Assembly: GCA_016931515.1 (NCBI GenBank)
Contig: JAFGEQ010000019.1
Span: 160,700 to 224,699 of the forward strand
Length of the DNA: 64,000 nt
Source of the DNA: a candidate division CSSED10-310 bacterium
GTDB lineage: Bacteria; CSSED10-310
Direction: 5' to 3'
The translations under genes were made by a program, and so were the position numbers. The notes under the pieces were generated by a model. It was not told the origin of the DNA. It ran no database searches and was given only the letters and a program-made list of their open reading frames with translations. Below are positions 20,811 to 64,000 of the stretch, one piece after another (position 1 is the stretch's first letter; every line of letters begins with the position of its first letter).

Positions 20811-22844
20811 TTGAGTGTCAGTGATAAGGAACAACATCACGTGAGAAATAATGTCAGAGATGCTGCATTTCTGGGCATGATAGCGCTCGTTCTCAGATTG
20901 GGTCATTTTTTCTTAATCGGAAACGATCCCGTTGCCGATATTCTGGTGCTCGATAGCTGGTCATACGATCGGATTGCGCGATTAATAATCTCGGGTGAAA
21001 TGCCGAATAAAGTGTATTTTCAGGCACCCTTCTATCCCTATTTTCTTGCTGCTTTTTATAAAATATTTAACGGTAGTATTGATTCCGTTCGTATTGCTCA
21101 AATCATTCTCGATACTATCTCAGCTGTTGCTGTTTTTCGAATTACACGTATCTTGTTCGGATGCCGTTCTGCATGGATTGCCGGGGTCTTTATGGCTGTG
21201 TATCCGGTATCTATATTTCAAAGTGGTCTGATACTGAAGACAACGTTGAATATCTTTTTTGCCGCATCGATGATCTGGTTGATTATCGAGAAACCCCGTT
21301 TCCCAGATAGCATTCGCATGATAATGCTGGGTCTCATAAGCGGATGGGCGGCTGCAACACAGGGATCCGTACTACTGCAACTGCCTATTCTTCCGATTTG
21401 GATTATTGTCGATAGTGGATGGCGATGTCTGCCGACATGGATCAAACGAATCGCGCTGTTTGGTCTGGGTTTGAGTATTGGTATCGGACCGTTCACATTA
21501 AGGAACTACCTTGTCAGCGGAAGATTCGTTCTTCTGACATCGCAGGGAGGAGCGAATTTTTATCTCGGTAACAGTCCATATTCCGATGGAACAAGCAAAC
21601 GACCGCCCAGGGTGAGGATGACGCCTGAATATGAAGAGGAGGATTTTCATCGGGAAGCAGAATATGCTGCAGGACAATCGCTCACACCTGAAGATGCGGG
21701 TCGGTACTGGCGGGATGAGGCTCTTAAATGGATGCGCGACCATCCTGGAGATGCATTGAAACTGGAGGCCAGGAAATTCGCCTTGTTTTGGAACCGGGTC
21801 GAAATACCCGACAACTATGATTTTGATTTTTACCGGCGCTATTCCTGGTTGATTCGGTATCCAAGATATCCATTCTGGATCATCGGCTCATTAGGATTGG
21901 CAGGAATGATATTTCTCACGGCATCATGGAGGAAAACCTGGTTCCTGTATGCATGGTCATCATCCTATTGTTTTATCTGGGTGATGTTCCATATTTATTC
22001 CAGGTACAGGTTACCGATGATTATCTTTCTGGCACCATTTGCCGCTGAATTCATCAGCAAAGTGATCGATTTGACTAAAACCGGTCGGTATACATCACTG
22101 GCGGGTCATTACCTGCTATGGATCGGCATTGTACTGTTCCAGGCAATTCCACTGACGGCCTATTCATCTGCTCAGCCCCTGTTCAATCTTGGTTCCGGTC
22201 TGACGCGTCTTGGCCGGCTGGATGAAGCCAGGACAGCTTATCTTGAGGCATTGGATGCATTGCCGGGCTATGAACCCGCAATGGTTAATCTGGGGAAATT
22301 GGCATGGTCTCAGGGTAATCCTGCTGAAGCGATTTTATGGTGGGAAAAAGCAATTGATACCAATCCAAAAGCCGTCGAAGCCCATTCCAATCTGGGTAGT
22401 TTGCTGGCCATGCAGGGAAAGATGATGGAAGCGAAAGGCCATTTCCTCGTCGCAACTCAAGAACAACCGTATTACTTCCTGGGGTGGCTGCATCTGGCTC
22501 AAACAGAAGAGTCTCTTCAAGAATATGAGAAGGCATTGGAAGCCTATAAGAAGGCCATTGATTTAAAACCTCATGATGTACAGGCTTTGTACGGCAGGGC
22601 AAAGGTGCTTGAAAAAATCGGTGGTGGGGAATCAGCACTGGCAGCATGGCGCATTTATTTAGACGAAGCGGACGACATGTTGGAAGAAAGAATCTACATT
22701 GACGAGGCAAAAACAAGAGTTGAATTGCTTTCGCATGAGATTCCTGTGGCCGGCGTGGAATCAATGGAAGGGGGATTAGCTCATTCGGATGAAACGTCGG
22801 ATCAGCGGGGACCGGCCGAACATCCATCGGATCGTATGCAGTAA
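20811..22844 (+). CDS. Polytopic membrane protein, GT-C fold (ArnT/PMT_2, GT39/83-like), with C-terminal TPR repeats
   Basis: Multi-TM N-terminal about 450 aa, then TPR repeats (AYLEALDALPGYEPAMVNLGKLAWSQGNPAEAILWWEKAIDTNPKAVEAHSNLG...). Confidence 0.65.
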   Translation: MSVSDKEQHHVRNNVRDAAFLGMIALVLRLGHFFLIGNDPVADILVLDSWSYDRIARLIISGEMPNKVYFQAPFYPYFLAAFYKIFNGSIDSVRIAQIILDTISAVAVFRITRILFGCRSAWIAGVFMAVYPVSIFQSGLILKTTLNIFFAASMIWLIIEKPRFPDSIRMIMLGLISGWAAATQGSVLLQLPILPIWIIVDSGWRCLPTWIKRIALFGLGLSIGIGPFTLRNYLVSGRFVLLTSQGGANFYLGNSPYSDGTSKRPPRVRMTPEYEEEDFHREAEYAAGQSLTPEDAGRYWRDEALKWMRDHPGDALKLEARKFALFWNRVEIPDNYDFDFYRRYSWLIRYPRYPFWIIGSLGLAGMIFLTASWRKTWFLYAWSSSYCFIWVMFHIYSRYRLPMIIFLAPFAAEFISKVIDLTKTGRYTSLAGHYLLWIGIVLFQAIPLTAYSSAQPLFNLGSGLTRLGRLDEARTAYLEALDALPGYEPAMVNLGKLAWSQGNPAEAILWWEKAIDTNPKAVEAHSNLGSLLAMQGKMMEAKGHFLVATQEQPYYFLGWLHLAQTEESLQEYEKALEAYKKAIDLKPHDVQALYGRAKVLEKIGGGESALAAWRIYLDEADDMLEERIYIDEAKTRVELLSHEIPVAGVESMEGGLAHSDETSDQRGPAEHPSDRMQ

Positions 22845-46250: not shown

Positions 46251-46324
<74 letters not shown>

Positions 46325-48458: not shown

Positions 48459-48464
48459 TCAGCA

Positions 48465-49106: not shown

Positions 49107-49140
49107 CCCTTTGATTCAGCCTAATTTGACCCGGGTTTTT

Positions 49141-49914
49141 TCATCGAGGACTTGATGCCGGGGCAGATCGTTGCTTTCTCAGCATCAGGGCAGCCGCATA
49201 CCCCGCACCAAAACCATTGTCGATATTGACAACAGTGACTCCGCTGGCACAAGAATTCAACATTGCCAGAAGTGCAGTGATTCCGCCGAATGACGTCCCA
49301 TATCCGACGGATGTCGGAACGGCAATCACCGGGCAATCGACAATCCCGGCGATAACACTGGGCAAAGCGCCTTCCATTCCCGCGACTGCAATGATTACAT
49401 CGGCGTTTTGAAGACTCTCAATGTGCCCTAAAAGGCGATGCAGACCTGCGATCCCGATATCTGTGATACGGGTCACCGGATGGCCCATGGTCTCCAGTGT
49501 GATTGCGGCTTCTTCAGCGACAGGCAGGTCTGATGTGCCGGCAGTGCAGACGAGAATCCGACCGGGGTGATTCGGGGGTGATGTTTGAAATGAGGCACAC
49601 CGTGCAGTGTCGGAGTATGAAAGGTAAGGTGTTTTTGCCTTTATGAGCGACCACTTCTCCGAATCCAACCGGGTAATCAGTACGGGATCTCCCTGAGCTC
49701 TCAACGTGTCTGCAATGATTACCAGCTGCTCAGGCGTTTTCCCTTCTCCGAACACCACTTCAGGGAGTCCTCTTCGGAGGACACGATGATGATCGATTGT
49801 GGCGAAGCCGAGGTTATCAAAGATAACTCTTTTCAGCTGATCCGCACCATCCTGGGGCTGTATTTCTCCAGAGGCGACAGCTTTCATCAGATGCAGTATT
49901 TTATCACGTGTCAT
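49141..49914 (-). CDS. PurE-like LarB family protein (pyridinium-3,5-biscarboxylic acid mononucleotide synthase-like)
   Basis: PurE/AIR-carboxylase fold (VAGMEGALPSVIAGIVDCPVIAVPTSVGYG) with the LarB-type N-terminal extension. The start overlaps the folD stop (TGATG). Confidence 0.6.
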   Translation of the reverse strand: MTRDKILHLMKAVASGEIQPQDGADQLKRVIFDNLGFATIDHHRVLRRGLPEVVFGEGKTPEQLVIIADTLRAQGDPVLITRLDSEKWSLIKAKTPYLSYSDTARCASFQTSPPNHPGRILVCTAGTSDLPVAEEAAITLETMGHPVTRITDIGIAGLHRLLGHIESLQNADVIIAVAGMEGALPSVIAGIVDCPVIAVPTSVGYGTSFGGITALLAMLNSCASGVTVVNIDNGFGAGYAAALMLRKQRSAPASSPR

Positions 49915-50846
49915 CACAAGGTAATCCCATTTCGTTTTTTGGCAAGAATCAACGTGTTTTTTATAAGCATGGCTACTGTCATGGGTCCAACACCACCGGG
50001 AACCGGTGAATACCATGCAGCAACTCCATCGACAGCAAGCGGATCCACATCACCGATTAAAGCAAACCCTTTGGCCGCCAGTTTTGCTCCGATTTCAGTA
50101 TCGGGATCCCGCCAGGCTGCCCGAGCATTATCCAGTGTGATGCGATTGATGCCAACATCGATCACAGCGGATCCTGGTTTTATGTGTTCGCGGCCAAGCA
50201 GTCCGGGTTTGCCGACTGCAGCAACCAGAATATCTGCTTGTCTGCAGATCGATGGAAGATCGACTGACCGAGAATGGGCTATCGTCACAGTGGCATGTTC
50301 TCGCAGGAGAAGTGCAGCCATAGGTTTCCCAACTATATTGCTGCGACCGACTATAACGGCGGATTTTCCAGCGATAGGCACTCCATAGGATTTCAGCAAT
50401 TCCATGACACCGGCCGGTGTGCATGGTGCGATTATTCCAGCACCGGACCAGAGGTTTCCAATGGATTCCGGATGGAATCCATCCACATCTTTTGCAACGG
50501 CAATCCGGTGGATCACTTCGTTTTCATTGAACTCAGGCGATGGGAGCGGCAGTTGGACAAGAAGGCCGTCACAGGAATCCATCTCGTTCAACCGGTCGAT
50601 GGCTGCCAGAATTGTTTCCGGGGACGCCGTATCCGGCAGATCGATCAACCGGAAGTCGATCCCAACTGATTTACATGCTTTCTGCTTGTTTTTAACATAT
50701 ACGGCTGAAGCGGGATCCGACCCGGCGTGGATAACTGCCAGACCGGGTTGTCGTCCTGTCAACTCAGTAAACTCCATGACGTCTTCTCTGATTGTTTCGA
50801 GCACCTGTCCTGAAATTTTTCGACCATCAAGAATCATTGTGTTCAT
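49914..50846 (-). CDS. folD: Bifunctional methylene-THF dehydrogenase / methenyl-THF cyclohydrolase
   Basis: ILDGRKIS..., VGxDPASxxYV, and the GxSxxVGxP Rossmann loop (VGRSNIVGKPMA). Start chosen at MNTMILDG, preceded by GGAGG. Confidence 0.8.
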   Translation of the reverse strand: MNTMILDGRKISGQVLETIREDVMEFTELTGRQPGLAVIHAGSDPASAVYVKNKQKACKSVGIDFRLIDLPDTASPETILAAIDRLNEMDSCDGLLVQLPLPSPEFNENEVIHRIAVAKDVDGFHPESIGNLWSGAGIIAPCTPAGVMELLKSYGVPIAGKSAVIVGRSNIVGKPMAALLLREHATVTIAHSRSVDLPSICRQADILVAAVGKPGLLGREHIKPGSAVIDVGINRITLDNARAAWRDPDTEIGAKLAAKGFALIGDVDPLAVDGVAAWYSPVPGGVGPMTVAMLIKNTLILAKKRNGITL

Positions 50847-50967
50847 ACCAGTCGCTCCTTCCAGCAGCATGGAAAATTATTTATTATCTTTTCATTGCTG
50901 AAACATCAACTTTTTTACATGTCGAGATGATGCCAAAGTGATATGATCGGAAAGGAGAATCAAATCG

Positions 50968-53106
50968 ATGATAAGGAATAAAATTGTTAGGGCATCAGTC
51001 ATTATACCTGTTGAGCTTATAGCATTTTCAGTTTTTCTCGCACTGGCTACCGGGTTGATCTCGCAATCCGACAGGCAATTCGCCGCTGGAGAACCCGTAT
51101 GGGGGATTCTTCGGCCAGTGATGGAATTACTGAGAACAACCGGTTTGTTGATGTGCCATATTCAGAAAGATTTTTACGCAGTGCTCATCGCCGGATTATC
51201 CTTATCCGTATTCCTTGCTGCCATTGCCACATTTAGATGGAGCCGCTGGTCGGGTCTTTTTCTGGCCGCTGCCCTGTCGATTTATTGTGCGGCCAGACTC
51301 TCGCTAATCGGCAATACATCTGTCGCAGCAATCCACTGGTTGCTTTTGGGCATATCATTCAGTGTTGCAGTCATATCGGCAGCATGTCGTAAACGATCCG
51401 ATTTGTCGGCTCCGCAGCAGGGAACGGATGAATGTGAGGACAGGGTCTCTATCGGTACATCCATGAATTTGATGTATTTTGTGAATCTTTTGATTATTCT
51501 TTCAATCGCTTTTGCATTCCGGATGTATCGAATCGATATTTTACCTCCGGGCGAGGCGCAGCACACGGCTGAGTGGGGGATGCTGGGCGCTGTGCAGGCA
51601 GCGGAACATTCACCGGGAATTCGTGATACCCAAGACAGGTCTTTTTTTCTGGAGCAGTTACGTCTTCGGCTGATTGTAGAACCTCATCAACAGGGTCTGA
51701 ATATACTTGCGGATTGGCTGCTGGCGGGCTGGTTCAGGCCGTCAATTGTTGTTCAACGATCAGCAACGGCGGTGATGGGTCTTGTCAGTGTCCTGGTGTC
51801 ATATTGGGTCGGCTGGTTGTTGTTTGGTCCGTTTGTGGCGAATGCAACTGCTTTTTTGATGGCTGTTTCACCGTGGCATGTCACGCATTCGCGTTATTCA
51901 AGCATCGAACATATAATTGCTATTCTCCTTGTTACACTGACAATGGTATTCCTGTTGCGTTTTCTAAAAAACAGGTCGATATGGACATTAGCAGGTCTGA
52001 TATTGCTTCTGGCTGCGGATTTTCATGTATATGTTACCGCACAATTCATTGTTCCTGTGGTCATTCTGGTTTGGCTTTTATCGATAATCAAGTGTCGGAA
52101 AAAACGCTGGATGTCTTTCGTTGTCATGCTAGTCTCACTGCTGATAGTAAGTGTAGTGATTGCTCCTAAAACCGGTCTTTATGGGTTGAAGGATAACGTG
52201 AAGTTACTCAATACACAGATTGAGGAACATCCGGATTATGCAATTCAGAATGACTGGGTTGTCATGCAAAACGCGGTCAAATTGGCAAGGGGGTTATTTT
52301 TAGATGGTCCTGGTGATGCCTGGTATGACAAACGTGGTTACCTGGTCTGGCCGGTATCAATGCTGTTGGTCATCGGATTAGGCTACGCATTGACATTTAT
52401 CGGAAAATTTCGTTATCAGGCTGTTCTGATCTGGTTTTGTATCGGACTGATTCCGACACTGCCTTCAGCGGTTGTCGCGCCTCGACGAATTTTATGTGCC
52501 ATGCCGGCTATCTATTGCCTGGCAGGGATCGGCGCAGAGTATATTGGGGTGACGCTACTGGCAAAAATAACTAAGGGGAGAATTTTAAAGTGGATCATTA
52601 TTCCTGTTTTGGCTCTTGCGATCGCTTCGGGAGCATGGGTTGTTATTGAGGACAATGTCGTGGTTGCAGAAGTACTGTGTAATGGACAGGAGAGGCGATT
52701 GGCGGAGATTGCCTGTACTTACGTGAACAACTATCGAGTTATCATGTTGTTTGAGCCGCATACACGTCGGGAGAAAATATGGATGGCGTGCGGTGACGCC
52801 GGATTGGAGGCTATGAAACGCATCGAATTTTATCCAAGTTTGGAAGCGTTTGAATCCGCTTTAAGCCAACCTGTTTCGTCCGACCTGGAACGGATTCCCA
52901 GTTCCAGCGTTGTCATTATTTTTCCGGAGAGTGATTCGGTTCAGACAAAGATTACTATTCTACAGACACTTTTTCCGGGTGGAGCGCTTCGGGAATATCG
53001 TTTTGATCCACATTTTAAAGATCATGCGCAAGGTCAGCCCTGCTGCAGGGCATGGGTTGTTCCAGCGAGTGTGACATCCGGTATTGAGCCAGGTTTGCAG
53101 AATTGA
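50968..53106 (+). CDS. Polytopic membrane protein, GT-C-fold glycosyltransferase-like (ArnT/PMT-like)
   Basis: 712 aa with at least 12 predicted TM helices and a soluble C-terminal domain. It is the first of a run of GT-C-like genes. Confidence 0.5.
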   Translation: MIRNKIVRASVIIPVELIAFSVFLALATGLISQSDRQFAAGEPVWGILRPVMELLRTTGLLMCHIQKDFYAVLIAGLSLSVFLAAIATFRWSRWSGLFLAAALSIYCAARLSLIGNTSVAAIHWLLLGISFSVAVISAACRKRSDLSAPQQGTDECEDRVSIGTSMNLMYFVNLLIILSIAFAFRMYRIDILPPGEAQHTAEWGMLGAVQAAEHSPGIRDTQDRSFFLEQLRLRLIVEPHQQGLNILADWLLAGWFRPSIVVQRSATAVMGLVSVLVSYWVGWLLFGPFVANATAFLMAVSPWHVTHSRYSSIEHIIAILLVTLTMVFLLRFLKNRSIWTLAGLILLLAADFHVYVTAQFIVPVVILVWLLSIIKCRKKRWMSFVVMLVSLLIVSVVIAPKTGLYGLKDNVKLLNTQIEEHPDYAIQNDWVVMQNAVKLARGLFLDGPGDAWYDKRGYLVWPVSMLLVIGLGYALTFIGKFRYQAVLIWFCIGLIPTLPSAVVAPRRILCAMPAIYCLAGIGAEYIGVTLLAKITKGRILKWIIIPVLALAIASGAWVVIEDNVVVAEVLCNGQERRLAEIACTYVNNYRVIMLFEPHTRREKIWMACGDAGLEAMKRIEFYPSLEAFESALSQPVSSDLERIPSSSVVIIFPESDSVQTKITILQTLFPGGALREYRFDPHFKDHAQGQPCCRAWVVPASVTSGIEPGLQN

Positions 53107-53232
53107 GTCCATCTGTCGGAATTATGCTTCGAAATGCCGGTACAGATTGACAACATAAGGGTTTAAATGGTACCTTTAGCATTTGTTTTCGTGACTAAAA
53201 CTATATGTCCGGTTGAATAAAACAGGCGATTT

Positions 53233-56208
53233 GTGAGAGGAAACGATTCGATGGAAAATGAAACAACAACTTCAAGGGTCAATACCGGTGACAAATTTAT
53301 AGGTGGTCTGACATGGAGCACATGGCTCTGGATTGGACTTTTTGTTTTTGTGGCGTTCACTCGTTTTCATCATCTGGGTGACAAACCTTTTCACCATGAT
53401 GAGAGCCTTTATGCCAAATACATCTGGAACTTTCATACAGGACAGGGGTATCAGTATGATCCGATGCAGCATGGTCCATTTCTTTTTCATGTCAGTCAGC
53501 TTGTGCTGTTCCTGTTCGGAGTATCGAATTACACGATACGCATTGTTCCGGCTCTGACGGGTATCTGTTTGATCGGCCTGTTCTACCTGATCCGGCGACG
53601 ATTACCGCCGGGCGTTGCCTTGATGACCGGCTGGTTATTCGCAATCAACTCGGTATTCATGTACTTTCAGCGTTTTCTGCGCCATGATCCGCTGTTTTCT
53701 CTGTTTGCTGTTGTTCTAATCTATCTGGCTTTCCTGTGGTTCAAGGATCGAAAAGCATGGCAGTACTATACTTTCTGCGCGACTGCCGCCATTCTCTATT
53801 GTATTAAAGAGAACGCCTTTGTCCATTATCTCACGATGTATCTCTTTATGATTATTTTTGCCCTGTATTGGATGCTCGGACAGAAAAAGAAATTCCGGGA
53901 TCTACTGACCAACTATCCCTTATCCACAAAAACATTTGCCGCTGTCTCCTTCTGGGGTGTCTTTTTTGTCGTATATGCTCTGGTCAACCAGTTCGGAAAA
54001 GCATCATTCGACAACTGGGAAAAGGCGTTACATACATATTGGATTATCGTCTACGTTGTTTTCTTCACCCTGGTAGGGTTGATGGTTTATCTCGGAGAAC
54101 TGGTGCGGATTAAAACCGACAAAAAACCTATGGGGCTCTCACCTGAATTTTTCCGTGACAGTCATGTTTTTGCGATAGGAACCGTGATTTTTTTCGGAAT
54201 CATTATCATTCTATATACGACTCTGACATTCAACCCGAAGGGATTTTGGGGCGCGATGTACGAATGGTATACCTATTGGCTGCATCAACACTCCATCGCC
54301 CGTATCGCCGGTCCTTTTCATTACTACCATCACCAGATGCTGATCTATGCATTTCTGCCTCTGGCGGTAACGATTTTTGCAGTGCTTGGACGCGGTCTTC
54401 GTAGAAATCCGGTTATTTTTGCTGCTTACATCATCGGAACCATGATTCTATTCTATGGTTTTTCCAATCTTGACAGAGCGCTGCCGGGAACAAAAACGAA
54501 TCTCTTTACCAACGAGCATCTGGCGATAGCAATCTCCGCTTTCGTCGGAGGAGTGCTTATGATGCTGTCATATCTCCGTGAAAGAATGATTTTAAAGTCA
54601 TTTTTGATCTGGTGGATCACGATGGCTTATATCATGTACTCATACCTCCAGGAAAAAGTACCCTGGCTTGTTATGCATATCATCACTCCAATGATTTTAT
54701 ACGCTGCGCTTGTTCTCATGGAGGCATTTCAGGATCGGGACACCATAACCAGATGGATGCGCCGGGTCATCCAGTGCTTTTTTGCGATAATGGTCATATA
54801 TGCGCTTCATACCTCCTTCCAATTGTGCTGGTGGCATGAAGCCGATCCGGTGGAACAGATGGTTTATGTTCAAACCACATATGAAGTTCCAATGCTTGTC
54901 GAGGAGATGGAGAGGATTGCCTATTGGCAGAACACACTGTTGACCAAAGAGCTTCCGATGGTGATTAACGGTCATGCCACATGGCCGTTATATTGGTATC
55001 TTAGGGACTGGTCGGGAATCAGCTACGGCACGAATGTTAATCCTGCCACGCATCTGATGGTGATATGCAACTGGGAAGATCGGTACAAGTTTGCTGAAAA
55101 GTGCGGAGACCAATATGTAGCCCGGCAATACGGCCTGCGTGCGTGGTTTCTACCGAAATACGAAAACGTCGCCAAGGGAGGAAAATTCTGGCGCAACGCA
55201 TGGAAATGGATAGCCTTCAGAGAAAAATTCGATAAAACTCTCTATGGGTCACAGCAAATCTGTGTATTCACCCGAAAAGATGTCTCAATGTTTCAGAACA
55301 GTGTTGATCTGGGAACTCCTCCGAAACCTCCGGAAGAGAGAAAACCGCCTCGCACGACATCTATCCAGGCAGAAAGTGCGATGGAGTTCGGTCTTTACGG
55401 TTCGCAATCGGGACGTTTTAATACACCGAAAGATATCTCAGTCGATAGTTCCGGGAATATCTATGTGGCCGATATGTGGAACCACCGCATCCAGAAATTT
55501 GCTCCCGATGGAAAATTCCTTCTCCAATGGGGTTCGAAAGGGAGCGGCAACGGGGAATTCAACCAACCGACCGGTATTGGTATCGGATCAAAAGGTCAGG
55601 TGTTCGTTGCTGATACATGGAATCACAGGATTCAGAAGTTTGATGAGAACGGGAAATTCATCATGACGTTCGGTGATGACAAAATGCTATGGGCTCCCAA
55701 GGATGTCATGGAGGATGACGATGGGTACATTTACGTATCCAATACCGGCTTCCATAAAATAATGAAGTTTACACGGAGTGGCAGTCGTGTCTGGGAAGTC
55801 GGCGAGAAGGGCAGTGGGCCGAAGGAGTTCACGGAGCCGGTTGGGATGTGTATGGACAAACAGGGTCTGTTATATGTAGCGGATACTGCTAACAAAAGGA
55901 TTTCGGTCTTTGACAAAAGTGGTAATCATATGAAGCAGATCGCTGTATACGGATTGGAAGAATATTATTCAGAGCCGTTTATAATGGTAGACAGCAACAC
56001 TCAGCGGATCTACATGACGGATTCCAGGAATAACCGGATACAAATCTTTGATTTAAACGGCAATCTTCTGAATTTCTGGGGCTCTGAAGGGTCCGAAAAA
56101 GGGCAGTTCAGGTTACCGACGGGTATTTTTATAGCCCAGGACAAGGTCTATGTGACGGAAGCGCAGAATCACAGGGTGCAGGTCTTCAATGTCGCCTCAC
56201 TGAAGTGA
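53233..56208 (+). CDS. GT-C-fold (PMT_2/ArnT-like, TIGR03663-like) membrane glycosyltransferase fused to C-terminal six-bladed NHL-repeat beta-propeller
   Basis: DE motif after TM1 (FHHDESLYAKY), as in PMT/ArnT enzymes. About 600 aa polytopic. The C-terminal repeats have the NHL signature (GNIYVADMWNHRIQKFAPDGKF; GQVFVADTWNHRIQKFDENGKF; LYVADTANKRISVFDKSG; IYMTDSRNNRIQIFDLNG; VYVTEAQNHRVQVF). Confidence 0.7.
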   Translation: MRGNDSMENETTTSRVNTGDKFIGGLTWSTWLWIGLFVFVAFTRFHHLGDKPFHHDESLYAKYIWNFHTGQGYQYDPMQHGPFLFHVSQLVLFLFGVSNYTIRIVPALTGICLIGLFYLIRRRLPPGVALMTGWLFAINSVFMYFQRFLRHDPLFSLFAVVLIYLAFLWFKDRKAWQYYTFCATAAILYCIKENAFVHYLTMYLFMIIFALYWMLGQKKKFRDLLTNYPLSTKTFAAVSFWGVFFVVYALVNQFGKASFDNWEKALHTYWIIVYVVFFTLVGLMVYLGELVRIKTDKKPMGLSPEFFRDSHVFAIGTVIFFGIIIILYTTLTFNPKGFWGAMYEWYTYWLHQHSIARIAGPFHYYHHQMLIYAFLPLAVTIFAVLGRGLRRNPVIFAAYIIGTMILFYGFSNLDRALPGTKTNLFTNEHLAIAISAFVGGVLMMLSYLRERMILKSFLIWWITMAYIMYSYLQEKVPWLVMHIITPMILYAALVLMEAFQDRDTITRWMRRVIQCFFAIMVIYALHTSFQLCWWHEADPVEQMVYVQTTYEVPMLVEEMERIAYWQNTLLTKELPMVINGHATWPLYWYLRDWSGISYGTNVNPATHLMVICNWEDRYKFAEKCGDQYVARQYGLRAWFLPKYENVAKGGKFWRNAWKWIAFREKFDKTLYGSQQICVFTRKDVSMFQNSVDLGTPPKPPEERKPPRTTSIQAESAMEFGLYGSQSGRFNTPKDISVDSSGNIYVADMWNHRIQKFAPDGKFLLQWGSKGSGNGEFNQPTGIGIGSKGQVFVADTWNHRIQKFDENGKFIMTFGDDKMLWAPKDVMEDDDGYIYVSNTGFHKIMKFTRSGSRVWEVGEKGSGPKEFTEPVGMCMDKQGLLYVADTANKRISVFDKSGNHMKQIAVYGLEEYYSEPFIMVDSNTQRIYMTDSRNNRIQIFDLNGNLLNFWGSEGSEKGQFRLPTGIFIAQDKVYVTEAQNHRVQVFNVASLK

Positions 56209-56268
56209 TACAGTCGAATCGTTATTGGATAGGGACATATCGGCATTTGCAGCGGGAGGGCAGATAAC

Positions 56269-58647
56269 GTGGTACAGGGTATGCTTCTGGTCATCGCGTG
56301 GTGGCTTGGGATACAGGTGATCGGTTGGGTTGCCTGGCCCATATCTGCCAGATTTTTTCGCAGTTACCCCGATAGCGGATATACGCTGAACAAGGGATTG
56401 GGCCTGATCCTGGTGGCCTTTGTCAACTGGTTTCTGGTCTCCATTCACCTCTTGTCTTTCTCCCTATGGTCAATCCTTGCATCCATCCTGATTATCGCAG
56501 CGATCTCCTGGTATTTCAGAGCGGATACTCCTGAATTGATTAAAAATTTTCTCAAAGCAGGGCGACGGCAAATCCTGATCACCGAGTTCGTGTTTCTAGC
56601 GGCATTCATGGGTTTTGCGTTGGTGCGAATGGGCAATCCCGATATAGCCCAGACCGAAAAGATGCCGGATTTCGCATTCCTGACAGGGATCGTCACGAGT
56701 GATCATTTCCCGCCCAAGGATCCCTGGTTTGCTGATGGCAGTATCAATTATTTCTATTACGGCCATTATCTCATCGGTTTAATGACGAAAATGTCGGGTG
56801 TTGCGCCGGAGTTCGGTTACAACCTGGGGATTGCCTTTATTTTTGCCATGACTCTCCTGAATGCCATCGGTGTTTCGCTCGGGCTGATTCGCAGACTCTG
56901 GTACGGGATTCTGGGAGGATTATTTGTCGCATTTATAGGGAATCTCGATTGCGCTGTTCAGTTCTTTTCTAACCTGGGGGACTTCACATCCGGAGCAAAA
57001 AAGATCGTACCTTTTACATGGTTCAACTGGTGGATGAGTTCAAGGGTTATTCTCCGTGAAGGCATAGATATAACTATCAACGAGTTCCCGTTCTGGAGCT
57101 ATATTCTGGGTGACCTGCATGCGCACATGAATGTTGTGCCGATATCCCTGTTGGTTCTTGCAATCATTCTGGAGATGTTCCGTCAATCCGGAAGCGGTTT
57201 GGATATTCTGGGATCCGGCAGGGAAAAATGGTTCCGTCTGCCGATCATCGCCATCGTTCTGGGTGCTCTCCCGTGTGCCAATACCTGGGACCTTCCGACT
57301 TACTATGCATTGATTGTGGCTGCCCTGATACTCGGACGGCAGTTCATGCACCATGATGGCGTCTTATCCGTTTCTGAATCCGACGGGTCGGTATCTGTGC
57401 TGAAAATACTCCTGTCCCCCCTGATTGAGTTGATCCGGCGATTGAAAAATTCCATTAAAAACGGGTGGCAAAATCAGGGATGGTCGGAGCAGCTTTTTTC
57501 GTGGCTGGCGATCATTCTGGTCGTTGCACTCTCATTTATATTATACCTGCCGTTCCACCTTAATTTCCATCCGGCTGGTACGGAAGGTATACGCGTCGTC
57601 GATCCTAAACAATACACATTGGCCGGCGACTTTCTGACGATATATGGCTTCTTTTTTTACTGCATGCTGCCGTTTGCCACTGCCTTGGCCGTATCGCGTT
57701 TCAGCCGGCTCAATGACCGTCTGAAACCCTTGGCTGGAATAGTCCTTGGCGTTTTCTTCATTGTGTTGCTGGTGGGCTTTAACCGTCTGATGATTGCCCT
57801 TTGCATGATGTTCCTTTTTATGATTCTTGCCATTCCTTTGAAGCGAGACGATCCGGATATTAAAGAAAAGTTCTTCGTCCTGGCGTTATCGGTCACCGTG
57901 CTGTTGATTTTGCTGGGTTGTGAGTTTTTTTATATCAAGGATGCATATGGAAAAACCCTCGAAAGGCAGAATACAATTTTTAAATTCTATTACCAGGCAT
58001 GGATATTTTGTGGTATTGCATCGATATATGCGGTGTATTGGATTCAGAATCGGTCCAAACGGGTATTCAGCAATCTGTGGGAACCGGGTTATAGAATCCT
58101 GCTTCTCTGTGCATTGATGTTTCCATTCGTTGCGTCAGTGGTCAAAACCGGTAATTTCCGATCATTTACTGACCCGTCACCGTATTCCAGGGCGACGTTG
58201 GATGGAATATTTTATATGACATGGCAGTATCCCGGAGATCATGAAGCAATTAAATGGCTCAGGCGGCATGCTGATCCGGATCAGCGGGTTTTGGAAGCCA
58301 CTGGTCCGGCTTTTTCCCATTATGGACGGATCAGTGCCGGAACAGGAATGGCTACAATCCTGGGATGGGGTAACCATGAAAATATCTGGCGGGATGGATC
58401 CTGGAAAATCGTTACAGAAAGAACGAATGAAGTGAAACGCGTCTATTTGACCGGTAGCCAGACTGATATTCGTAATATACTCGATAAATACAAGATTGAT
58501 TATGTGTATTTTGGAAAACTGGAACGGGAACAATACCAGGATTCCGATCCGGATCGATTTTCCTTCCTGGAAAAGGTCTTGGAAACCAAGGATTCGGACC
58601 AGAAGATGACGTATCTATTCCGGTACAATCGGACCCCTGTACGATAA
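56269..58647 (+). CDS. DUF2298 / 'YYY' membrane protein (TIGR03662-like), partner of the upstream GT-C protein
   Basis: Hallmark motif DGSINYFYYGHYLIGLMTKMSGV, about 16 TMs and a C-terminal soluble domain. GTG start with GGGAGGG RBS. Confidence 0.7.
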   Translation: MVQGMLLVIAWWLGIQVIGWVAWPISARFFRSYPDSGYTLNKGLGLILVAFVNWFLVSIHLLSFSLWSILASILIIAAISWYFRADTPELIKNFLKAGRRQILITEFVFLAAFMGFALVRMGNPDIAQTEKMPDFAFLTGIVTSDHFPPKDPWFADGSINYFYYGHYLIGLMTKMSGVAPEFGYNLGIAFIFAMTLLNAIGVSLGLIRRLWYGILGGLFVAFIGNLDCAVQFFSNLGDFTSGAKKIVPFTWFNWWMSSRVILREGIDITINEFPFWSYILGDLHAHMNVVPISLLVLAIILEMFRQSGSGLDILGSGREKWFRLPIIAIVLGALPCANTWDLPTYYALIVAALILGRQFMHHDGVLSVSESDGSVSVLKILLSPLIELIRRLKNSIKNGWQNQGWSEQLFSWLAIILVVALSFILYLPFHLNFHPAGTEGIRVVDPKQYTLAGDFLTIYGFFFYCMLPFATALAVSRFSRLNDRLKPLAGIVLGVFFIVLLVGFNRLMIALCMMFLFMILAIPLKRDDPDIKEKFFVLALSVTVLLILLGCEFFYIKDAYGKTLERQNTIFKFYYQAWIFCGIASIYAVYWIQNRSKRVFSNLWEPGYRILLLCALMFPFVASVVKTGNFRSFTDPSPYSRATLDGIFYMTWQYPGDHEAIKWLRRHADPDQRVLEATGPAFSHYGRISAGTGMATILGWGNHENIWRDGSWKIVTERTNEVKRVYLTGSQTDIRNILDKYKIDYVYFGKLEREQYQDSDPDRFSFLEKVLETKDSDQKMTYLFRYNRTPVR

Positions 58648-58661
58648 TTTAAGGAGAGACC

Positions 58662-61600
58662 ATGGAATCTACCGACCGATGGACTGAGACAGTTTCCGGG
58701 AAACGACGCAATTGGCTGTTGTTCGTCCTGTTTCTCGCAGGTCTGGGATTGCGGTTGTACGGTTATGAATGGGGATTCCCTCATCACTTCCATCCGGATG
58801 AACGACAGATTGTCGATTTTCAAGCTCCCAAGGTGGAGCTGGATATACTGAATCCTGTGAAATCGATTCCTCCGCTCCTTCAGGGTGACTGGAAAACTCT
58901 GAATAATATGGTATTCAAAATGAATACCAAGTTTTTTGCCTATGGTCCGCTACCAATGTATACACTGGCCGTCATCGTGGAGTGTCAGGATGCGATCAAT
59001 ATGCAGATCCGGTCATTCTTCGCTGACCGTCCCGGAGTGAGCCTGGAAACCCGGACTAAAATCAATAAATGGTTTCCGAGGATCAAGGACGGAAAAGGTC
59101 GGATTGTAACAGGGCGGATACTTTCCGGAATTCTGTCTGCGTTGACAATTCTGATCATCTTCCGCCTGGGTGCCTACCTGTACAATTCAAAGGTCGGTCT
59201 CCTGGCGGCGGTCTTCTTCACGTTCACCGTGCTCTCGATCCAGCAAGCGCATTTCATGATTGTTGATGGACCTCAAACCTTTCTCGTGACCTGGGCGATG
59301 TACCATGTTGTTAGGATCGCCATGGGGGACCGCCGACGTGATTATTATCTGGCGGCGGTTTTTATCGGGCTTGCAATGGCAACCAAGTTCAGTACAGCAC
59401 CTATCGGCCTGGCTTATATTCTCGCTCATTTTCTGTCGTTGCTGCGGGGCCGGCGTAAAGGCATGAATAACTGGTACCATTGGATTGCAGGCGGATTATT
59501 GGCGATTATCGTTATGACAATTGTCATGCCTTTCTGGATTCTCGATACCAATGAGTTTTTTCATGACATCCGCGAACAGAGAGATATGGTTACCGGCGTG
59601 GCGGATCTGCCTTACACAATCCAGTTCGAAGGAACCGCTCCATTTGTTTATATGATAAAAAACATGATCCTATGGTCTCTGGGTCTTCCACTCGGATTGG
59701 CTGCCTACATCGGCTTGATCGCAGCTGTCCGACGGATTTGGAAAAAACCTGAAGATCTTGGAAATATGGTCATACTCGCACTGGTAATTCCGCTTCTATA
59801 TTTTAACGGAATTTTCTTTGCGAAATTTTTAAGATATACCCTGGTTACCATTCCATTTTTTGTGATTTTTGCAGCACGCTGGCTGTACGGCATGAAATCA
59901 TGGGCCGGAAGAGGATGGGGAAGGTTTGTAACCGGCATTGTTCTCGTTGGTACAATCGGATGGGCTATGGCTTTCCAAACGATCTATCTGGATCCGCACA
60001 CCCGGTTGCAGGCATCCGACTGGATCTATCAGAATGTAGATAAGGGGAAACATATTGTCCAGGAAAGCGGTTGGGATGATGGTCTGCCCGTAAGTACAAA
60101 TAACGGAGATCCGGGGCGATATAGTATTCGGCAGCTCGGCATTTACAAGGAACCGGACAACGAGCAACGGGCGGATGTCATGGCTGAAATTCTGGAATGG
60201 GGTGACGTGATTGTTCTCTCATCCAGGAAGCATTATGGGTCCGTGACACGTGTTCCCGATCGATACCCCGTTTCATCGAATTTTTATAAATTGCTATTTG
60301 ACGAAAAATTGGGTTATCAACATGTGCAGACATTCGACAATCCTCCTGGACTCTGGAAACTTCGGTTTCGAGATGATGCGGCTGATGAAAGTTTCCGTGT
60401 GTATGAGCATCCCCGGGTTGATATTTTTATCAAGGAAAGCGGTTTAACGGAATCGCGTTTGTCCGCACTCCTTCTGGCGCCTCCACCCGAAGTCGCGGAC
60501 ATGACATATAATGAATTGATGACACGCCGACCGCCAACGGAGATCGGGTCACGCGTCAATTTCCCGATCATGAGATGGCTGCTGGTTCTTGAGATACTCG
60601 GGTTCATATGTATACCGTTTGCTTTCGTGGTTTTCACCCGGTTCGATCATAAGGGATATCCCTATACCAAACTGATCGGTTTGCTTCTTACCGCCTACAT
60701 GTGCTGGCTGTTACCGAGCCTGCAGTACCTGCCGTTTTCCCGAACCCTGATCATTGGAATGCTAGTCGTTCTGGCTTGGATCAATCATTCTATATACAGG
60801 ACTCACAGGGATGCTATTCGCACCATGGTCAGAGAGCGGTGGTGGAGTATTGCCGGGTACGAGATCCTTTTCCTGTCGGTATTTTGTATTTTCGGGTTAT
60901 TGAAGAGCTGGAATCCGGATATTTTCTGGAGTGAAAGCTCAATGGATTTCGGTTTTATTAATGCTGTGCTGCGATCAGACTATTTTCCGCCACAGGATCC
61001 ATGGGTTCAGGGTCAGGGCATTAATTATTACTACTATGGTCATTACCTTGCGGCTTTTATGACCAGACTTACTGGAGTGGAACCCCATTACGGGTATAAT
61101 CTGTTTTTTATTACGATTCCATCTTTGGTCGCGCTGACGATCGCGGGTATTCTGATGACTCTGACCCGCAGAATTTGGGTATCACTGTTCGGCGTGCTCT
61201 TTGCCATCTTCATCGGCAATCTGGATGGATTGCCTCAGATGGCCAATATCTGGGCCCGGCAGACCAGGGGAACTGAATGGTTCAGGTATGCCGATGCTTT
61301 TCAGAGTGCGGTCGGTCATGTTTTGAATCTGGGACGGCAAGATGCGCATTTCCGGTTCTTTCGATCCGCACATGAATTGATAAAACCAACTGTCCATGAG
61401 TTTCCTTATTGGAGTTATAACTTCATGGATTTGCACGCGCATACTATCGCGACGGTATTGAGTACATTCTTCCTGGCCTTACTGTTCGTTCTCCTGCGTA
61501 ACGCCGGAGGAGGGATCCGGATTTTCGGTGATCAGAAACAACAGCAGGTTGTTACTCTGATCATCCTGTGGGTGACGTATGGAGCAATGATATCGACAAA

Positions 61601-64000
61601 CTCCTGGGACATCCCGACTCAGATGGTTCTAATGATTTTGATATCCCTCTGGATTATGGTTTTTGCAGAACGAAAACCCCGAATCCGATTGCGTCCGATT
61701 GTTGACCTGGATGTCGAGCGGATGGTTGCAAACACTCCGTCTGCTGATGAACAAATCGATTCCTCGACGCCCATGGCGGATACAGATGCAGAAACACCTC
61801 AACTGGAAGATACGCTTGTGGCGGAGACTATTCCCGACCTGGTTGCCGGATCCGGGATGGACATGGAGGAAAAGCCTGGGGAAGATGAGGAACCATCGGT
61901 TGCCTCAGTGACTCAACGCAATGCTGTGATTGATGGAGATCTTGAATCGGATGATTCTCCTCCTGAAGCAGACATCTCTGATTCGGTTGAAAATCAAGTT
62001 TTACCGGAATCCGCCGGCAATGTTGATGAATTAGTGATTGAAGAATCTGATTTCGCTTCCATGGATGAAGAATCTGAGCTGATTGTCGGTTCTGAAATGG
62101 ACGTCGATGAAGAATCGGACATGTTGTCCGGTTCAGACTCGCAGGCGGAATCAGACGCGGAATCGGTGTCGGACACTGAATCGGACAGGCGACGATTCTC
62201 GATGCCACTGGATTCCATCAAGGATCATTCTGACGATCGAGAAGTTCCTGAATTCCAGGACTCCATCAAACGTCGCTGGCGTGCTGGTATTATCATCAAA
62301 TCGATCGAATGGCTTGGTAATCAGGTGTACAATGAGATAACAGGTTCTTGGAGATTTCTGTGGAATTTATTGTGGCCGGTCGCTTTAGTGATTCTGGGTG
62401 CCATGACACTTCATATGCCCTACCTGATGCATTTCCACCGAGCGGGTATGGGAGTCGGGACACTGTGGAAGTACAGGCAGACAACCAATCTTGATGGATT
62501 TCTGACAATGTTCGGTTTTTTCATTTTCATATTCATAACACAATTCATCCGCTGGTGGTGGGATGTTCAGAAGGAAAGGGGTCGCTCATCGGTACGCTCT
62601 GCAGGCATTCTACTGGGAATAATCATCTTGTTACTGATCGCCTGTCTGGGATTCATGCATTTCCCTGATGTTCCAGCGGACTTCTCCGTTCTGGCTATCA
62701 GTCTGTTCTTGATCTTATTGATCATTTCAATATTGATTGAGGGCTATCCGACGACATCCGAAGCATTTCCACTTATTCTTGCTCTGGCAGCGGTTGGAAT
62801 CACTGCAGGTTGCGAAATATTTTATATCCGTGATTTCTACCAGGGCGGTGATATGCGCCGATTCAACACAATTTTCAAATTTTATCTGCAGGCGTGGTTC
62901 ATGTTTTCCCTTGCATCCGGATACCTGATTGCACGACGAATGAGAATTCGTTCAAAACCTGCTCATATAAGCGGTGGCATGGCTTTCATGGCGCGGGTTT
63001 CATCATGGAGTTGGAATCTTGTATTCATATTTCTGCTGGGTGCGTCACTGATTTTTACATTCTGGGGAATTCATGCCAGGCATTATCATGATGAATACCG
63101 GAGGGTTAAGCTGCCGTTGACACTCGACGGCTGGGCATACATGAAGAAGGGTTTTAGAGAAGACATCATCAATGAGTACCGAGCCATTAACTGGCTCCAG
63201 CAGAATATTAAGGGCACACCGGTTATTCTGGAAGCCAGTGGCGCTGATTATCTCTATCAATATGGCGATATCTCTGCGAATACGGGACTTCCCACTGTAT
63301 TGGGATGGTGGAGTCATGTGGGCCAGAGAGAATATCTAATCAAGCGTAATCGGGGTAAAAACAGGAAAGACCGTGAAATAGATATCGGGAAGATAAAGCG
63401 AGATATCCTGACGATGTATAACAGCGCAGATATAGAGGAAGTATTATCGCTGCTCGGTCAATATAGAGTTCAGTATATATTCGTTGGCCCGACTGAAAAG
63501 TCAGAGTACAACTCATTGGGTCTGGAGAAATTTCGAGAGATGTCGGTTTTCATGACACCGGTTTATACCAATCCGGATGTTGTGATTTACAGGGTGAATG
63601 ATTACGGCCACAGTGTAGATCTATCGGATACGATCCAGGATAATGCCGCCCTTACTCGCCTTAAGGAGGAACTCACTGCCCGGGAAGAAGAAGAAACGAG
63701 GGCACAGAGAGCTGCTGAGATAGAGCGGGAGCGGAGAATGATGGAGCAGCCGCCGAAGAGCCTGCTCCGTGGAACTCAGGGCAAAGCCAGAGGCATGTTC
63801 GAAGAACCGCGATCAATGTGTGTCGCACCTGATGGATCTGTGTATGTTGCAGATTTCCGCAACCATCGCATTCAAAAGTACGGACCGGACGGCAATTGGC
63901 TTATGGCATGGGGTGAAACCGGTGATGAGCCTGGGCAGTTCAACGATATCTGTGATGTTGCTGCAAATACACGTTTTGTTTATGTTCTTGATACGTTCCA
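58662..64000 (+). CDS. Giant multidomain membrane protein: GT-C (PMT/ArnT-like) + DUF2298 'YYY' module + acidic linker + further TM/soluble DUF2298 C-region + NHL repeats; ORF still open at window end (>1779 aa)
   Basis: Not in the ORF track, which requires a stop. I translated it by hand in frame 0 from ATG 58662 (RBS AAGGAGAG) and spot-checked three codon stretches. It reads FHPDERQ (DE motif), then INYYYYGHYLAAF at about 61020, a D/E/S-rich tract at about 61700-62250, and an NHL blade VYVADFRNHRIQKYGPDGNW at about 63840. No in-frame stop was found. Confidence 0.7.
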   Translation, partial: MESTDRWTETVSGKRRNWLLFVLFLAGLGLRLYGYEWGFPHHFHPDERQIVDFQAPKVELDILNPVKSIPPLLQGDWKTLNNMVFKMNTKFFAYGPLPMYTLAVIVECQDAINMQIRSFFADRPGVSLETRTKINKWFPRIKDGKGRIVTGRILSGILSALTILIIFRLGAYLYNSKVGLLAAVFFTFTVLSIQQAHFMIVDGPQTFLVTWAMYHVVRIAMGDRRRDYYLAAVFIGLAMATKFSTAPIGLAYILAHFLSLLRGRRKGMNNWYHWIAGGLLAIIVMTIVMPFWILDTNEFFHDIREQRDMVTGVADLPYTIQFEGTAPFVYMIKNMILWSLGLPLGLAAYIGLIAAVRRIWKKPEDLGNMVILALVIPLLYFNGIFFAKFLRYTLVTIPFFVIFAARWLYGMKSWAGRGWGRFVTGIVLVGTIGWAMAFQTIYLDPHTRLQASDWIYQNVDKGKHIVQESGWDDGLPVSTNNGDPGRYSIRQLGIYKEPDNEQRADVMAEILEWGDVIVLSSRKHYGSVTRVPDRYPVSSNFYKLLFDEKLGYQHVQTFDNPPGLWKLRFRDDAADESFRVYEHPRVDIFIKESGLTESRLSALLLAPPPEVADMTYNELMTRRPPTEIGSRVNFPIMRWLLVLEILGFICIPFAFVVFTRFDHKGYPYTKLIGLLLTAYMCWLLPSLQYLPFSRTLIIGMLVVLAWINHSIYRTHRDAIRTMVRERWWSIAGYEILFLSVFCIFGLLKSWNPDIFWSESSMDFGFINAVLRSDYFPPQDPWVQGQGINYYYYGHYLAAFMTRLTGVEPHYGYNLFFITIPSLVALTIAGILMTLTRRIWVSLFGVLFAIFIGNLDGLPQMANIWARQTRGTEWFRYADAFQSAVGHVLNLGRQDAHFRFFRSAHELIKPTVHEFPYWSYNFMDLHAHTIATVLSTFFLALLFVLLRNAGGGIRIFGDQKQQQVVTLIILWVTYGAMISTNSWDIPTQMVLMILISLWIMVFAERKPRIRLRPIVDLDVERMVANTPSADEQIDSSTPMADTDAETPQLEDTLVAETIPDLVAGSGMDMEEKPGEDEEPSVASVTQRNAVIDGDLESDDSPPEADISDSVENQVLPESAGNVDELVIEESDFASMDEESELIVGSEMDVDEESDMLSGSDSQAESDAESVSDTESDRRRFSMPLDSIKDHSDDREVPEFQDSIKRRWRAGIIIKSIEWLGNQVYNEITGSWRFLWNLLWPVALVILGAMTLHMPYLMHFHRAGMGVGTLWKYRQTTNLDGFLTMFGFFIFIFITQFIRWWWDVQKERGRSSVRSAGILLGIIILLLIACLGFMHFPDVPADFSVLAISLFLILLIISILIEGYPTTSEAFPLILALAAVGITAGCEIFYIRDFYQGGDMRRFNTIFKFYLQAWFMFSLASGYLIARRMRIRSKPAHISGGMAFMARVSSWSWNLVFIFLLGASLIFTFWGIHARHYHDEYRRVKLPLTLDGWAYMKKGFREDIINEYRAINWLQQNIKGTPVILEASGADYLYQYGDISANTGLPTVLGWWSHVGQREYLIKRNRGKNRKDREIDIGKIKRDILTMYNSADIEEVLSLLGQYRVQYIFVGPTEKSEYNSLGLEKFREMSVFMTPVYTNPDVVIYRVNDYGHSVDLSDTIQDNAALTRLKEELTAREEEETRAQRAAEIERERRMMEQPPKSLLRGTQGKARGMFEEPRSMCVAPDGSVYVADFRNHRIQKYGPDGNWLMAWGETGDEPGQFNDICDVAANTRFVYVLDTF

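Follow-up and report, generated by a model that had tools for sequence, protein, structure and literature searches.

A GT-C/YYY/NHL gene cluster in a CSSED10-310 bacterium as a candidate periplasmic-face glycosylation machine

The question raised by this locus is which function is served by a run of large polytopic membrane proteins encoded one after the other in a bacterium of the uncultured phylum CSSED10-310. The window (the whole stretch of 64,000 nucleotides that was analysed) contains three consecutive polytopic open reading frames on the + strand (50968..53106, 53233/53251..56208 and 56269/56281..58647) ahead of a giant fusion gene, as the preliminary description had placed them. Public gene calls start genes 2 and 3 at ATG codons (53251 and 56281), the alternative upstream starts being GTG codons at 53233 and 56269. 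A public contig overlapping the window (L001) was used to read past the window edge. Genes 1 to 4 are co-directional, each has a GT-C fold, which is typical of transferases for lipid-linked sugars, and these membrane glycosyltransferase genes are probably organised as one operon; tig, clpP, a GTPase gene, purE and folD lie on the 5' side. Within the window, no gene for a polyprenyl-phosphate sugar synthase, a flippase or a candidate acceptor adjoins the cluster.

The N-terminal part of gene 2 (residues 1-689; 53251..55317, + strand) is a GT-C domain of the Agl23/TIGR03663 family with HHDES and HGP motifs. It scores 242.3 bits with the NCBIfam model TIGR03663, nearly twice the cutoff of 126.25, 37.8 bits with PMT_2 (cutoff 26.1) and 892 bits with an HMM built in this analysis. 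The TIGR03663 family is described by an invariant DE dipeptide, an HGP tripeptide and two arginines near the N-terminus, all of which are present in gene 2; across an alignment of 40 sequences, H49-D50-E51, G75-P76, R97 and R141 never vary, and H74 hardly does. The exact protein is recorded at NCBI as "TIGR03663 family protein", and the current NCBI name of the family is "flippase activity-associated protein Agl23".

The preliminary description held that the TIGR03662/TIGR03663 pair has no demonstrated function; this is outdated, since a TIGR03663 member, Agl23 of Haloarcula hispanica, has been characterised as a putative dolichol-phosphate-hexose flippase (PMC11182771). The purified protein translocates Man5GlcNAc2-PP-dolichol/-phytanol in (proteo)liposomes in vitro, it rescued yeast rft1-delta, and it is tied to the use of dolichol-phosphate-hexose in N- and O-glycan synthesis (PMC11182771). 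Gene 2 passes the same family model and has the invariant DE, HGP and Arg residues, but it is bacterial whereas Agl23 is haloarchaeal (the two being compared through the family model), carries a C-terminal NHL propeller, and has YYY and further GT-C genes as its neighbours.

This beta-propeller (residues ~701-985 of gene 2; 55351..56208, + strand; Pfam NHL, 130.6 bits) has the six blades that had been ascribed to it, located at 737, 784, 828, 874, 920 and 966 with a spacing of about 46 residues; five signatures are canonical and the one at 828 is degenerate. It matches six-bladed TRIM71 NHL structures (E = 1e-88), and the non-catalytic NHL domains of TRIM71, Thin and Brat are its best matches by far (E = 1e-88 to 1e-31); the extracellular sensor domain of PknD is matched at 9e-17. 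The propeller would be periplasmic: all of the stand-alone NHL homologues that were checked (8 proteins from 4 loci) carry an N-terminal signal-anchor helix, which argues for a location outside the cytoplasm.

Gene 3 (788 aa; 56281..58647, + strand) is a Chlor_Arch_YYY/DUF2298 protein, with 524.5 bits for TIGR03662 (cutoff 300.25) and 361.7 bits for DUF2298 (cutoff 27.8). The middle pair thus consists of a DE-motif GT-C protein followed by a YYY protein, both assignments lying above the curated thresholds in the profile-HMM search, as had been proposed from the letters. The YYYxG motif is present as INYFYYGHY in gene 3 and INYYYYGHY in the fusion, Y157 and Y159 being nearly invariant in the YYY family; TIGR03662/DUF2298 comprises 10,947 clusters at 50% identity. 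The structure model of gene 3 (pLDDT 94) has a GT-C-fold membrane core and a C-terminal globular domain, and the latter, as modelled, resembles the globular domain by which the oligosaccharyltransferases AglB, STT3 and PglB bind peptide. Foldseek TM-scores are low (0.28-0.42). No sequence-level similarity was found between YYY and any solved GT-C or the Agl23 family, and no profile-to-sequence similarity between YYY and STT3, AglB or PglB. The likeness to these GT66 enzymes is confined to the fold of the C-terminal domain; YYY proteins have some four helices more than these enzymes ahead of the conserved external loop and are not GT66 members. Gene 3 itself was rejected as a GT66 protein, with no STT3 match at E <= 0.01 in Pfam or NCBIfam and with the conserved YYY stretch reading GWxGHExxWR, without WWDYG. 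An invariant glutamate of the family, E126, stands at the start of the external loop and is plausibly the GT-C acidic first-loop residue.

The giant fusion (gene 4, + strand) starts at 58662 and combines PMT_2, DUF2298 and NHL domains in 1,980 aa, as read at full length in L001, where it ends 2,208 bases past the window. Residues 1-620 (58662..60521) form a PMT_2-type GT-C domain (53.5 bits) with an HPDER motif; all of 14 fused homologues, drawn from several phyla, keep its HPDE core, and 13 of them have R at the fifth position. The YYY/DUF2298 domain follows at residues 636-1646 (60567..63599; TIGR03662 427.9 bits, DUF2298 285.1 bits). It is matched in two stretches by both models, and a disordered, acidic insert of ~220 aa (residues ~1004-1226, window ~61671-62339; 55 D+E in 170 aa) interrupts it; relatives share the position of the insert but not its sequence. 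The C-terminal NHL propeller begins at residue ~1698 (63753..64000, the window edge), with 32 bits inside the window and 238 bits for the full propeller in L001. In gene 4 the GT-C/YYY partnership recurs within one polypeptide, where an HPDER GT-C is followed by YYY and NHL. The topology of the fusion is consistent in itself: from the periplasmic tail of its GT-C domain the chain enters YYY TM1, so that the C-terminal domain and the conserved loop of YYY would lie outside. Directly after gene 4, past the window in L001, lies a convergent fifth gene encoding a GT-C protein with PMT_2, a weak propeller and a weak PA14 match (18 bits, threshold 24).

Gene 1 (712 aa; 50968..53106, + strand) is a divergent membrane protein that is assigned to GT-C by the fold of its structure model. 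Its PMT_2 match is sub-threshold (22.3 bits, cutoff 26.1), and the residues aligned with the DE motif read A-Q (PPG[E/Q]AQHTAEW), the canonical acidic pair being absent. The NCBI name, a GT39 protein O-mannosyltransferase, was rejected on these two grounds and on the absence of MIR and PF02366, the latter giving no match in genes 1-3. The upstream position lacks gene 1 in two other loci (L002 and L003), and in L003 the gene is located 3' of the fusion. Judged from this gene order, gene 1 is not a part of the conserved module; it is lineage-restricted and, like the convergent fifth gene, a lineage-specific addition to the core.

Conservation was surveyed in 80 species-representative loci anchored on YYY. 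In 54 of them YYY has an Agl23-family gene beside it, encoded on the same strand, and the linkage is kept in CSSED10-310 relatives (52-65% identity), so the expectation that this neighbourhood would be conserved was borne out. Other taxa with the linkage include Chloroflexota, Methylomirabilis, Goldiibacteriota, Binatia, Sumerlaeia and FCPU426. About one third of the full-flank YYY loci lack an Agl23 gene within 10 kb. Matches came from at least 580 species representatives, and the core Agl23/YYY gene pair is widespread. NHL domains occur in 21/80 loci (fused in 12, stand-alone in 9), so that about one YYY locus in four has a fused or adjacent NHL domain, and the NHL fusion is not peculiar to the window. 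GT-C+YYY fusions were found in 27/80 loci and GT-C+YYY+NHL triple fusions in CSSED10-310, Binatia (L049) and Thermoanaerobaculia (L090); these fusions of GT-C with YYY and NHL support a functional link.

TIGRFAMs describes TIGR03662 and TIGR03663 as a co-occurring pair of Chloroflexi and Archaea, with double-YYY giants as part of the TIGR03662 description. The adjacency of both families on the same strand and the double-YYY giants were found here too, but the range of species extends well beyond that description, and NHL fusions and triple fusions are absent from the original description. DPM1-like GT2 genes, comparable to Agl22 of Haloarcula, adjoin the module in six bacterial loci (L005, L006, L013, L023, L054 and L077), which speaks indirectly for a polyprenyl-phosphate-linked sugar donor. 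The Methylomirabilis locus L013 reads GT9, YYY, Agl23, NHL, NHL, MOP/Wzx flippase, GT2, GT2, radical SAM, GT2, the layout of a full lipid-linked-glycan pathway. In the Aureabacteria locus L006, ABC-2 transporter, GT4, GT2 and sugar-nucleotide genes surround an Agl23-NHL gene.

Given the observed folds, motifs, fusions and conserved adjacency, the region is probably a periplasmic-face glycosylation machine that uses polyprenyl-phosphate sugars. A dedicated envelope glycosylation system, as first proposed for the whole row of genes, is still the best inference, with the linkage conserved, and gains strength from the GT-C folds shown for YYY and for gene 1 as well, with gene 1 corrected to a non-conserved component. 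The conserved core is an Agl23/TIGR03663-family enzyme (HHDES) paired with a YYY/DUF2298 enzyme. With donor type, membrane side, NHL role and division of labour as we infer them, a DPM1/Agl22-type GT2 would load sugars onto polyprenyl phosphate at the cytoplasmic face, the lipid-linked sugars would pass to the periplasmic face, perhaps aided by the Agl23-type protein, and the GT-C enzymes would transfer them to an extracytoplasmic acceptor (protein or glycan). For transfer or ligation the candidate is YYY, given its oligosaccharyltransferase-like C-terminal domain, and the DE-motif GT-Cs are candidates for single-hexose addition. The membrane-tethered NHL propellers may hold or select the acceptor, much as MIR, TPR and CBM domains do in PMT, TMTC and Emb/AftD. 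Invariant acidic first-loop motifs are D50-E51 for the Agl23 family and HPDE for the fused GT-C, with the invariant E126 of YYY as a plausible counterpart. The GT2 genes of the loading step, found beside the module in some lineages, have no Agl22-like counterpart adjoining the cluster in this window.

That the sole characterised relative, Agl23, is reported as a flippase counts against a transferase reading. It is nevertheless unlikely that Agl23-family proteins are ATP-independent scramblases moving polyprenyl-linked sugars to the outer leaflet, with YYY as the sole transferase of the pair. Translocation by purified Agl23 in proteoliposomes, rescue of yeast rft1-delta (PMC11182771) and the NCBI name of TIGR03663 speak for such a role, and a flippase tightly adjoining a GT-C would make functional sense. 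However, the family has an invariant H-D-E at the catalytic DE position of PMT-type GT-Cs and invariant arginines, residues that a scramblase would not obviously require; fusions of the family to an acceptor-type propeller are frequent, and in L013 a separate MOP/Wzx-type flippase lies beside the Agl23 gene. Moreover, many polytopic proteins scramble lipids in liposomes, and flippase and transferase roles are not mutually exclusive. For the propellers, a catalytic function (lyase, lactonase or amidating-lyase-type) coupling glycosyl transfer to a second chemical step is very improbable: SGL/gluconolactonase (44.5 bits), Vgb_lyase (39.6 bits, below the cutoff of 50) and peptidylglycine amidating lyase structures (E = 2e-19) are matched, but are outweighed by the far better matches to the non-catalytic NHL domains together with the PknD sensor.

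The acceptor could also be a polymer. Assembly of a polysaccharide or lipoglycan, in which the GT-Cs extend or branch a periplasmic-face envelope polymer as Emb/Aft build arabinan and the NHL and PA14-like domains are carbohydrate-binding modules, is possible, if on the doubtful side. It is consistent with the diderm organism (BamA and LpxD are present), with the neighbours of the Agl23-NHL gene in L006, typical of polysaccharide loci, and with the PA14 match of the fifth gene, PA14 being a carbohydrate-binding domain type; that match, however, is below threshold. The modelled YYY C-terminal domain points instead to the peptide-binding domain of protein oligosaccharyltransferases, the nearest NHL structures are protein- or RNA-binding propellers, and no Arabinose_trans or other polymerase-type Pfam match was obtained. 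The mycobacterial arabinosyltransferases (Emb/Aft) themselves were rejected as counterparts, with no family HMM match and a fold no closer than to other GT-C enzymes.

A broader form of the preferred glycosylation reading, which we regard as speculative and rather unlikely, is that DUF2298/YYY is an unrecognised and very large oligosaccharyltransferase-like GT-C family that forms, with Agl23-type GT-Cs and tethered NHL propellers, a glycosylation machine of the periplasmic face that is widespread in bacteria and archaea. If true, this machine would do in prokaryotes what ALG elongation plus OST transfer do in the ER lumen, and Agl23 would be primarily a hexosyltransferase, its reported flippase activity being secondary. 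ER-lumenal ALG3/9/12/6/8/10 plus OST, and mycobacterial Emb/Aft, are also among the closest known systems. With PMT (GT39) and TMTC enzymes the cluster shares the DE motif in the first external loop, the PMT_2 domain and a lumenal or periplasmic accessory domain appended to the GT-C core, which is an NHL propeller here and MIR or TPR there. A separate PMT_2-TPR gene is located elsewhere in the window (20811..22844).

The preliminary description had placed four GT-C-like genes in a row, and ORF calling on the window recovered its first three reading frames at exactly the positions it had assigned, all on the plus strand. They correspond to gene 1 (50968..53106), gene 2 (53251..56208, an Agl23-family GT-C with an NHL propeller) and gene 3 (56281..58647, a YYY or DUF2298 protein). 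Public gene calls start genes 2 and 3 at ATG 53251 and ATG 56281 instead of upstream GTGs; in an exact-sequence look-up, the ATG 53251 version of gene 2 matched a public record and the GTG-start version had no match. Its 985-aa product is recorded verbatim in the overlapping Logan contig (L001) and in one NCBI assembly, as 'TIGR03663 family protein [candidate division CSSED10-310 bacterium]'. The fourth gene, a giant fusion, begins 15 bases past gene 3 (at 58662) and continues beyond the window end. The extent of the row is larger than described: directly past the fusion, outside the window, lies a convergent fifth GT-C gene on the minus strand (L001 18193-19815; in a second locus, L008 18344-21532), so that the cluster reaches beyond both the window and the four genes. 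Its parts are a PMT_2 match (36 bits), a stretch resembling PA14 that stays below threshold, and a weak, degenerate propeller. What argues for an operon is the common strand and the short gaps (15 to 145 bp); in a scan of 50500..59500, promoter and terminator sites were no more frequent than in shuffled sequence, and intergenic terminators were not found.

The annotation of the cluster is solid. The gene pair recognised as TIGR03663-like and TIGR03662-like exceeds both curated cutoffs: gene 2 scores 242.3 bits with NCBIfam TIGR03663 (cutoff 126.25), together with 37.8 bits for PMT_2 (cutoff 26.1), and gene 3 scores 524.5 bits with TIGR03662 (cutoff 300.25) and 361.7 bits with DUF2298. The six-bladed NHL propeller claimed for the GT-C member is likewise present (NHL, 130.6 bits; six blades spaced by about 46 residues, one degenerate), and its match to the six-bladed NHL structures of TRIM71 has E = 1e-88. 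In an alignment of 40 homologues of gene 2, the HHDES/HGP motifs are conserved, with H49, D50, E51, G75, P76, R97 and R141 invariant and H74 nearly so.

Sequence searches of all PDB chains gave no meaningful match for gene 1, for the membrane domain of gene 2 or for YYY (as a single sequence and as a 58-sequence profile), and a comparison at the level of fold was therefore needed. The AlphaFold2 model of YYY, computed from the 58-sequence alignment, had a mean pLDDT of 94.2 and a pTM of 0.94. All 12 Foldseek matches of this model at E <= 1e-3 were GT-C enzymes, among them DPY19, AglB, yeast STT3, AftA and PglB, with low TM-scores (0.28-0.42). On this model, DUF2298 is a GT-C-fold protein whose C-terminal domain resembles that of oligosaccharyltransferases (OST). 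YYY is not a member of GT66, since gene 3 has no STT3 HMM match and lacks the WWDYG motif. Its comparison with the Agl23-family profile (hhalign) indicated no relationship (probability 0.6%), and the two partners are not recent paralogues. Equating the T-I-N-E stretch of YYY (E268) with the OST 'TIXE' motif of external loop 5 was rejected on model topology: E268 shares an external region with N221, with zero transmembrane helices between them, and the equivalents of these two elements in PglB are five helices apart. Mycobacterial arabinosyltransferases were judged a less close analogy than the OST, ALG and PMT enzymes.

Gene 1 is polytopic (about 13 hydrophobic segments) and belongs to a family of ten detectable members only. 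Its PMT_2 match is below threshold, and its profile aligns with the Agl23-family core with a probability of 94.5%. At the site of the DE motif of other GT-C enzymes (residues 190-205), the family carries a nearly invariant D-x-LPPG-x-AQHTAEWGM, in which the aligned DE positions are A-Q. Judging from this alignment, gene 1 may use another acid (D190 or E202) or may be non-catalytic.

The giant fusion is 1,980 aa long in L001. It opens with a PMT_2-type GT-C, followed by a YYY part that is interrupted by about 220 aa of acidic, disordered sequence; a charged linker then leads to the NHL propeller. The GT-C part has an HPDER motif, the HPDE core of which is invariant across phyla. The insert (window 61671-62339, residues about 1004-1226) splits YYY and is strongly acidic, Ser/Thr-rich and apparently disordered; the 170 aa richest in acidic residues contain 55 D+E. 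In CSSED10-310 relatives, the same YYY position holds an insert of unrelated sequence; Chloroflexota GT-C+YYY fusions have no insert of this type.

In CSSED10-310 relatives (52-65% identity), the order Agl23-NHL, YYY, GT-C-YYY-NHL is retained; gene 1 is either missing at the cluster or placed after the fusion. The same housekeeping genes precede the cluster in these genomes, namely tig, clpP, an EngB-like GTPase, purE where present, and folD (window 43496-50870, directly upstream), a block that is syntenic in the relatives L002 and L003 down to 52% protein identity. This synteny indicates a stable chromosomal position and not a mobile island.

For the wider distribution, one genome per GTDB species was scanned with the YYY alignment as query. 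YYY was found in at least 580 species representatives, mostly Chloroflexota; further lineages among the matches listed were KSB3, Methylomirabilis, Goldiibacteriota, Binatia, Terriglobales, Sumerlaeia and FCPU426. Five HMMs (Agl23 domain, NHL, YYY, gene 1 family, N-terminal GT-C of the fusion) were built and run on six-frame ORFs of the best 80 loci among these at least 580 species. The GT-C/YYY linkage, proposed earlier as a check, is kept: an Agl23-family gene was present in 56 of the 80 loci and adjoined the YYY gene on the same strand in 54. GT-C+YYY fusions occurred in 27/80 and two or more YYY genes in 33/80. NHL was present in 21/80, fused to an Agl23-like protein (12 loci), as stand-alone genes (9) or fused to YYY (2). 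Many loci are on short contigs, and all these counts are therefore lower bounds. The stand-alone NHL proteins checked (n=8; L013, L014, L023, L077) have a Lys-rich start followed by a single hydrophobic helix, that is, a signal anchor that would place the propeller outside the cytoplasm. Triple GT-C+YYY+NHL fusions were also found in Binatia (L049) and Thermoanaerobaculia (L090), and argue for the parts acting as one complex. A search of 1.84 billion cluster representatives with the YYY profile gave 10,947 proteins at E <= 1e-3; some are giants of 2,000-2,700 aa that contain YYY twice.

Genes for DPM1/Agl22-type GT2 enzymes adjoin the module in six loci (L005, L006, L013, L023, L054, L077). 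The most complete pathway context among the loci examined is that of a Candidatus Methylomirabilis MAG (L013, 9165-21210), with the order GT9, YYY, Agl23, NHL, NHL, MOP/Wzx-type flippase, GT2, GT2, B12-radical SAM, GT2, in which both NHL proteins are signal-anchored. In gene order, the locus is laid out like a pathway that assembles a lipid-linked glycan, flips it and transfers it, and the B12-binding radical SAM enzyme suggests a modified sugar. A Goldiibacteriota locus (L023) shares with it the core of YYY, Agl23 and two NHL genes as well as a DPM1-like GT2. Within the window, no DPM1-like GT2, flippase or similar pathway gene was found beside the cluster.

Four features together make extracytoplasmic sugar transfer from polyprenyl-phosphate donors a plausible mechanism: acidic motifs in the first loop are invariant, all members have a GT-C fold, periplasmic propellers are appended, and synthases for polyprenyl-phosphate sugars are encoded beside the module in some loci. 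The DE-motif GT-Cs would add single sugars and YYY would perform a transfer or ligation step. The predicted topology of the fusion is consistent with this: with the GT-C N-terminus inside and its tail periplasmic, the first YYY helix would start at the outer face of the membrane; four helices on, the conserved YYY loop (E126, FPPxDPW, YYY) would be outside again, as would the OST-like C-terminal domain, which runs into the NHL. The NHL domains would serve as acceptor-binding modules; a rival reading makes the propeller itself catalytic. The acceptor could also be a polysaccharide instead of a protein. In the Thermoanaerobaculia MAG, an SLH-domain (S-layer homology) protein (L090, 12340-13095) is encoded roughly 3 kb away from the triple fusion and the Agl23-NHL pair; this single occurrence may hint at a protein acceptor.

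Another rival regards Agl23 as a pure flippase. The present NCBIfam name of TIGR03663 is 'flippase activity-associated protein Agl23', and Haloarcula Agl23 is reported to have suppressed yeast rft1-delta and, when purified, to have translocated Man5GlcNAc2-PP-phytanol in proteoliposomes (PMC11182771). Agl23 has served to argue the route of lipid-linked oligosaccharides across membranes. Three observations bear on whether it is flippase, transferase or both: its DE motif is invariant, propellers of acceptor type are fused to members of its family, and the Methylomirabilis locus encodes a Wzx-type flippase separately. Under the sugar-transfer mechanism, Agl23-type proteins could additionally help to move the donor across the membrane.

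The window does not hold a new kind of system, since databases already define the pair as an association, and for one of its two families an archaeal member has been characterised. Literature searches on DUF2298/TIGR03662 function or GT-C-NHL fusions returned nothing relevant. New with respect to the searched literature is the model-based assignment of DUF2298 as an OST-like GT-C at fold level, which provides a concrete, testable biochemical hypothesis for this domain; new as well are the recurrent NHL partnership, fused or membrane-anchored, and the triple fusions and breadth of the module over bacterial phyla. GT-C enzymes make N-glycans, O-mannosyl glycans, lipid A modifications and mycobacterial arabinan; a multi-GT-C module conserved in at least 580 species representatives of many phyla, with major environmental lineages (Chloroflexota, Binatia, Methylomirabilota) among the carriers, points to an unstudied envelope glycoconjugate.

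The organism is diderm, as judged from a canonical BamA (POTRA x4 + Omp85, window 1263-3641) and LpxD (4261-5370). A 1,044-aa protein (9456-12590) has an unusual architecture, in which Peptidase_MA_2 and PD40 beta-propeller repeats are joined to an Omp85 barrel at the C-terminus. A second glycosylation-type locus (20811-27675) contains a PMT_2-TPR GT-C (677 aa, TMTC-like architecture). Beside it, minus-strand genes encode a GT4-type enzyme, a methyltransferase and a 784-aa protein that has a GT2 domain at its C-terminus.
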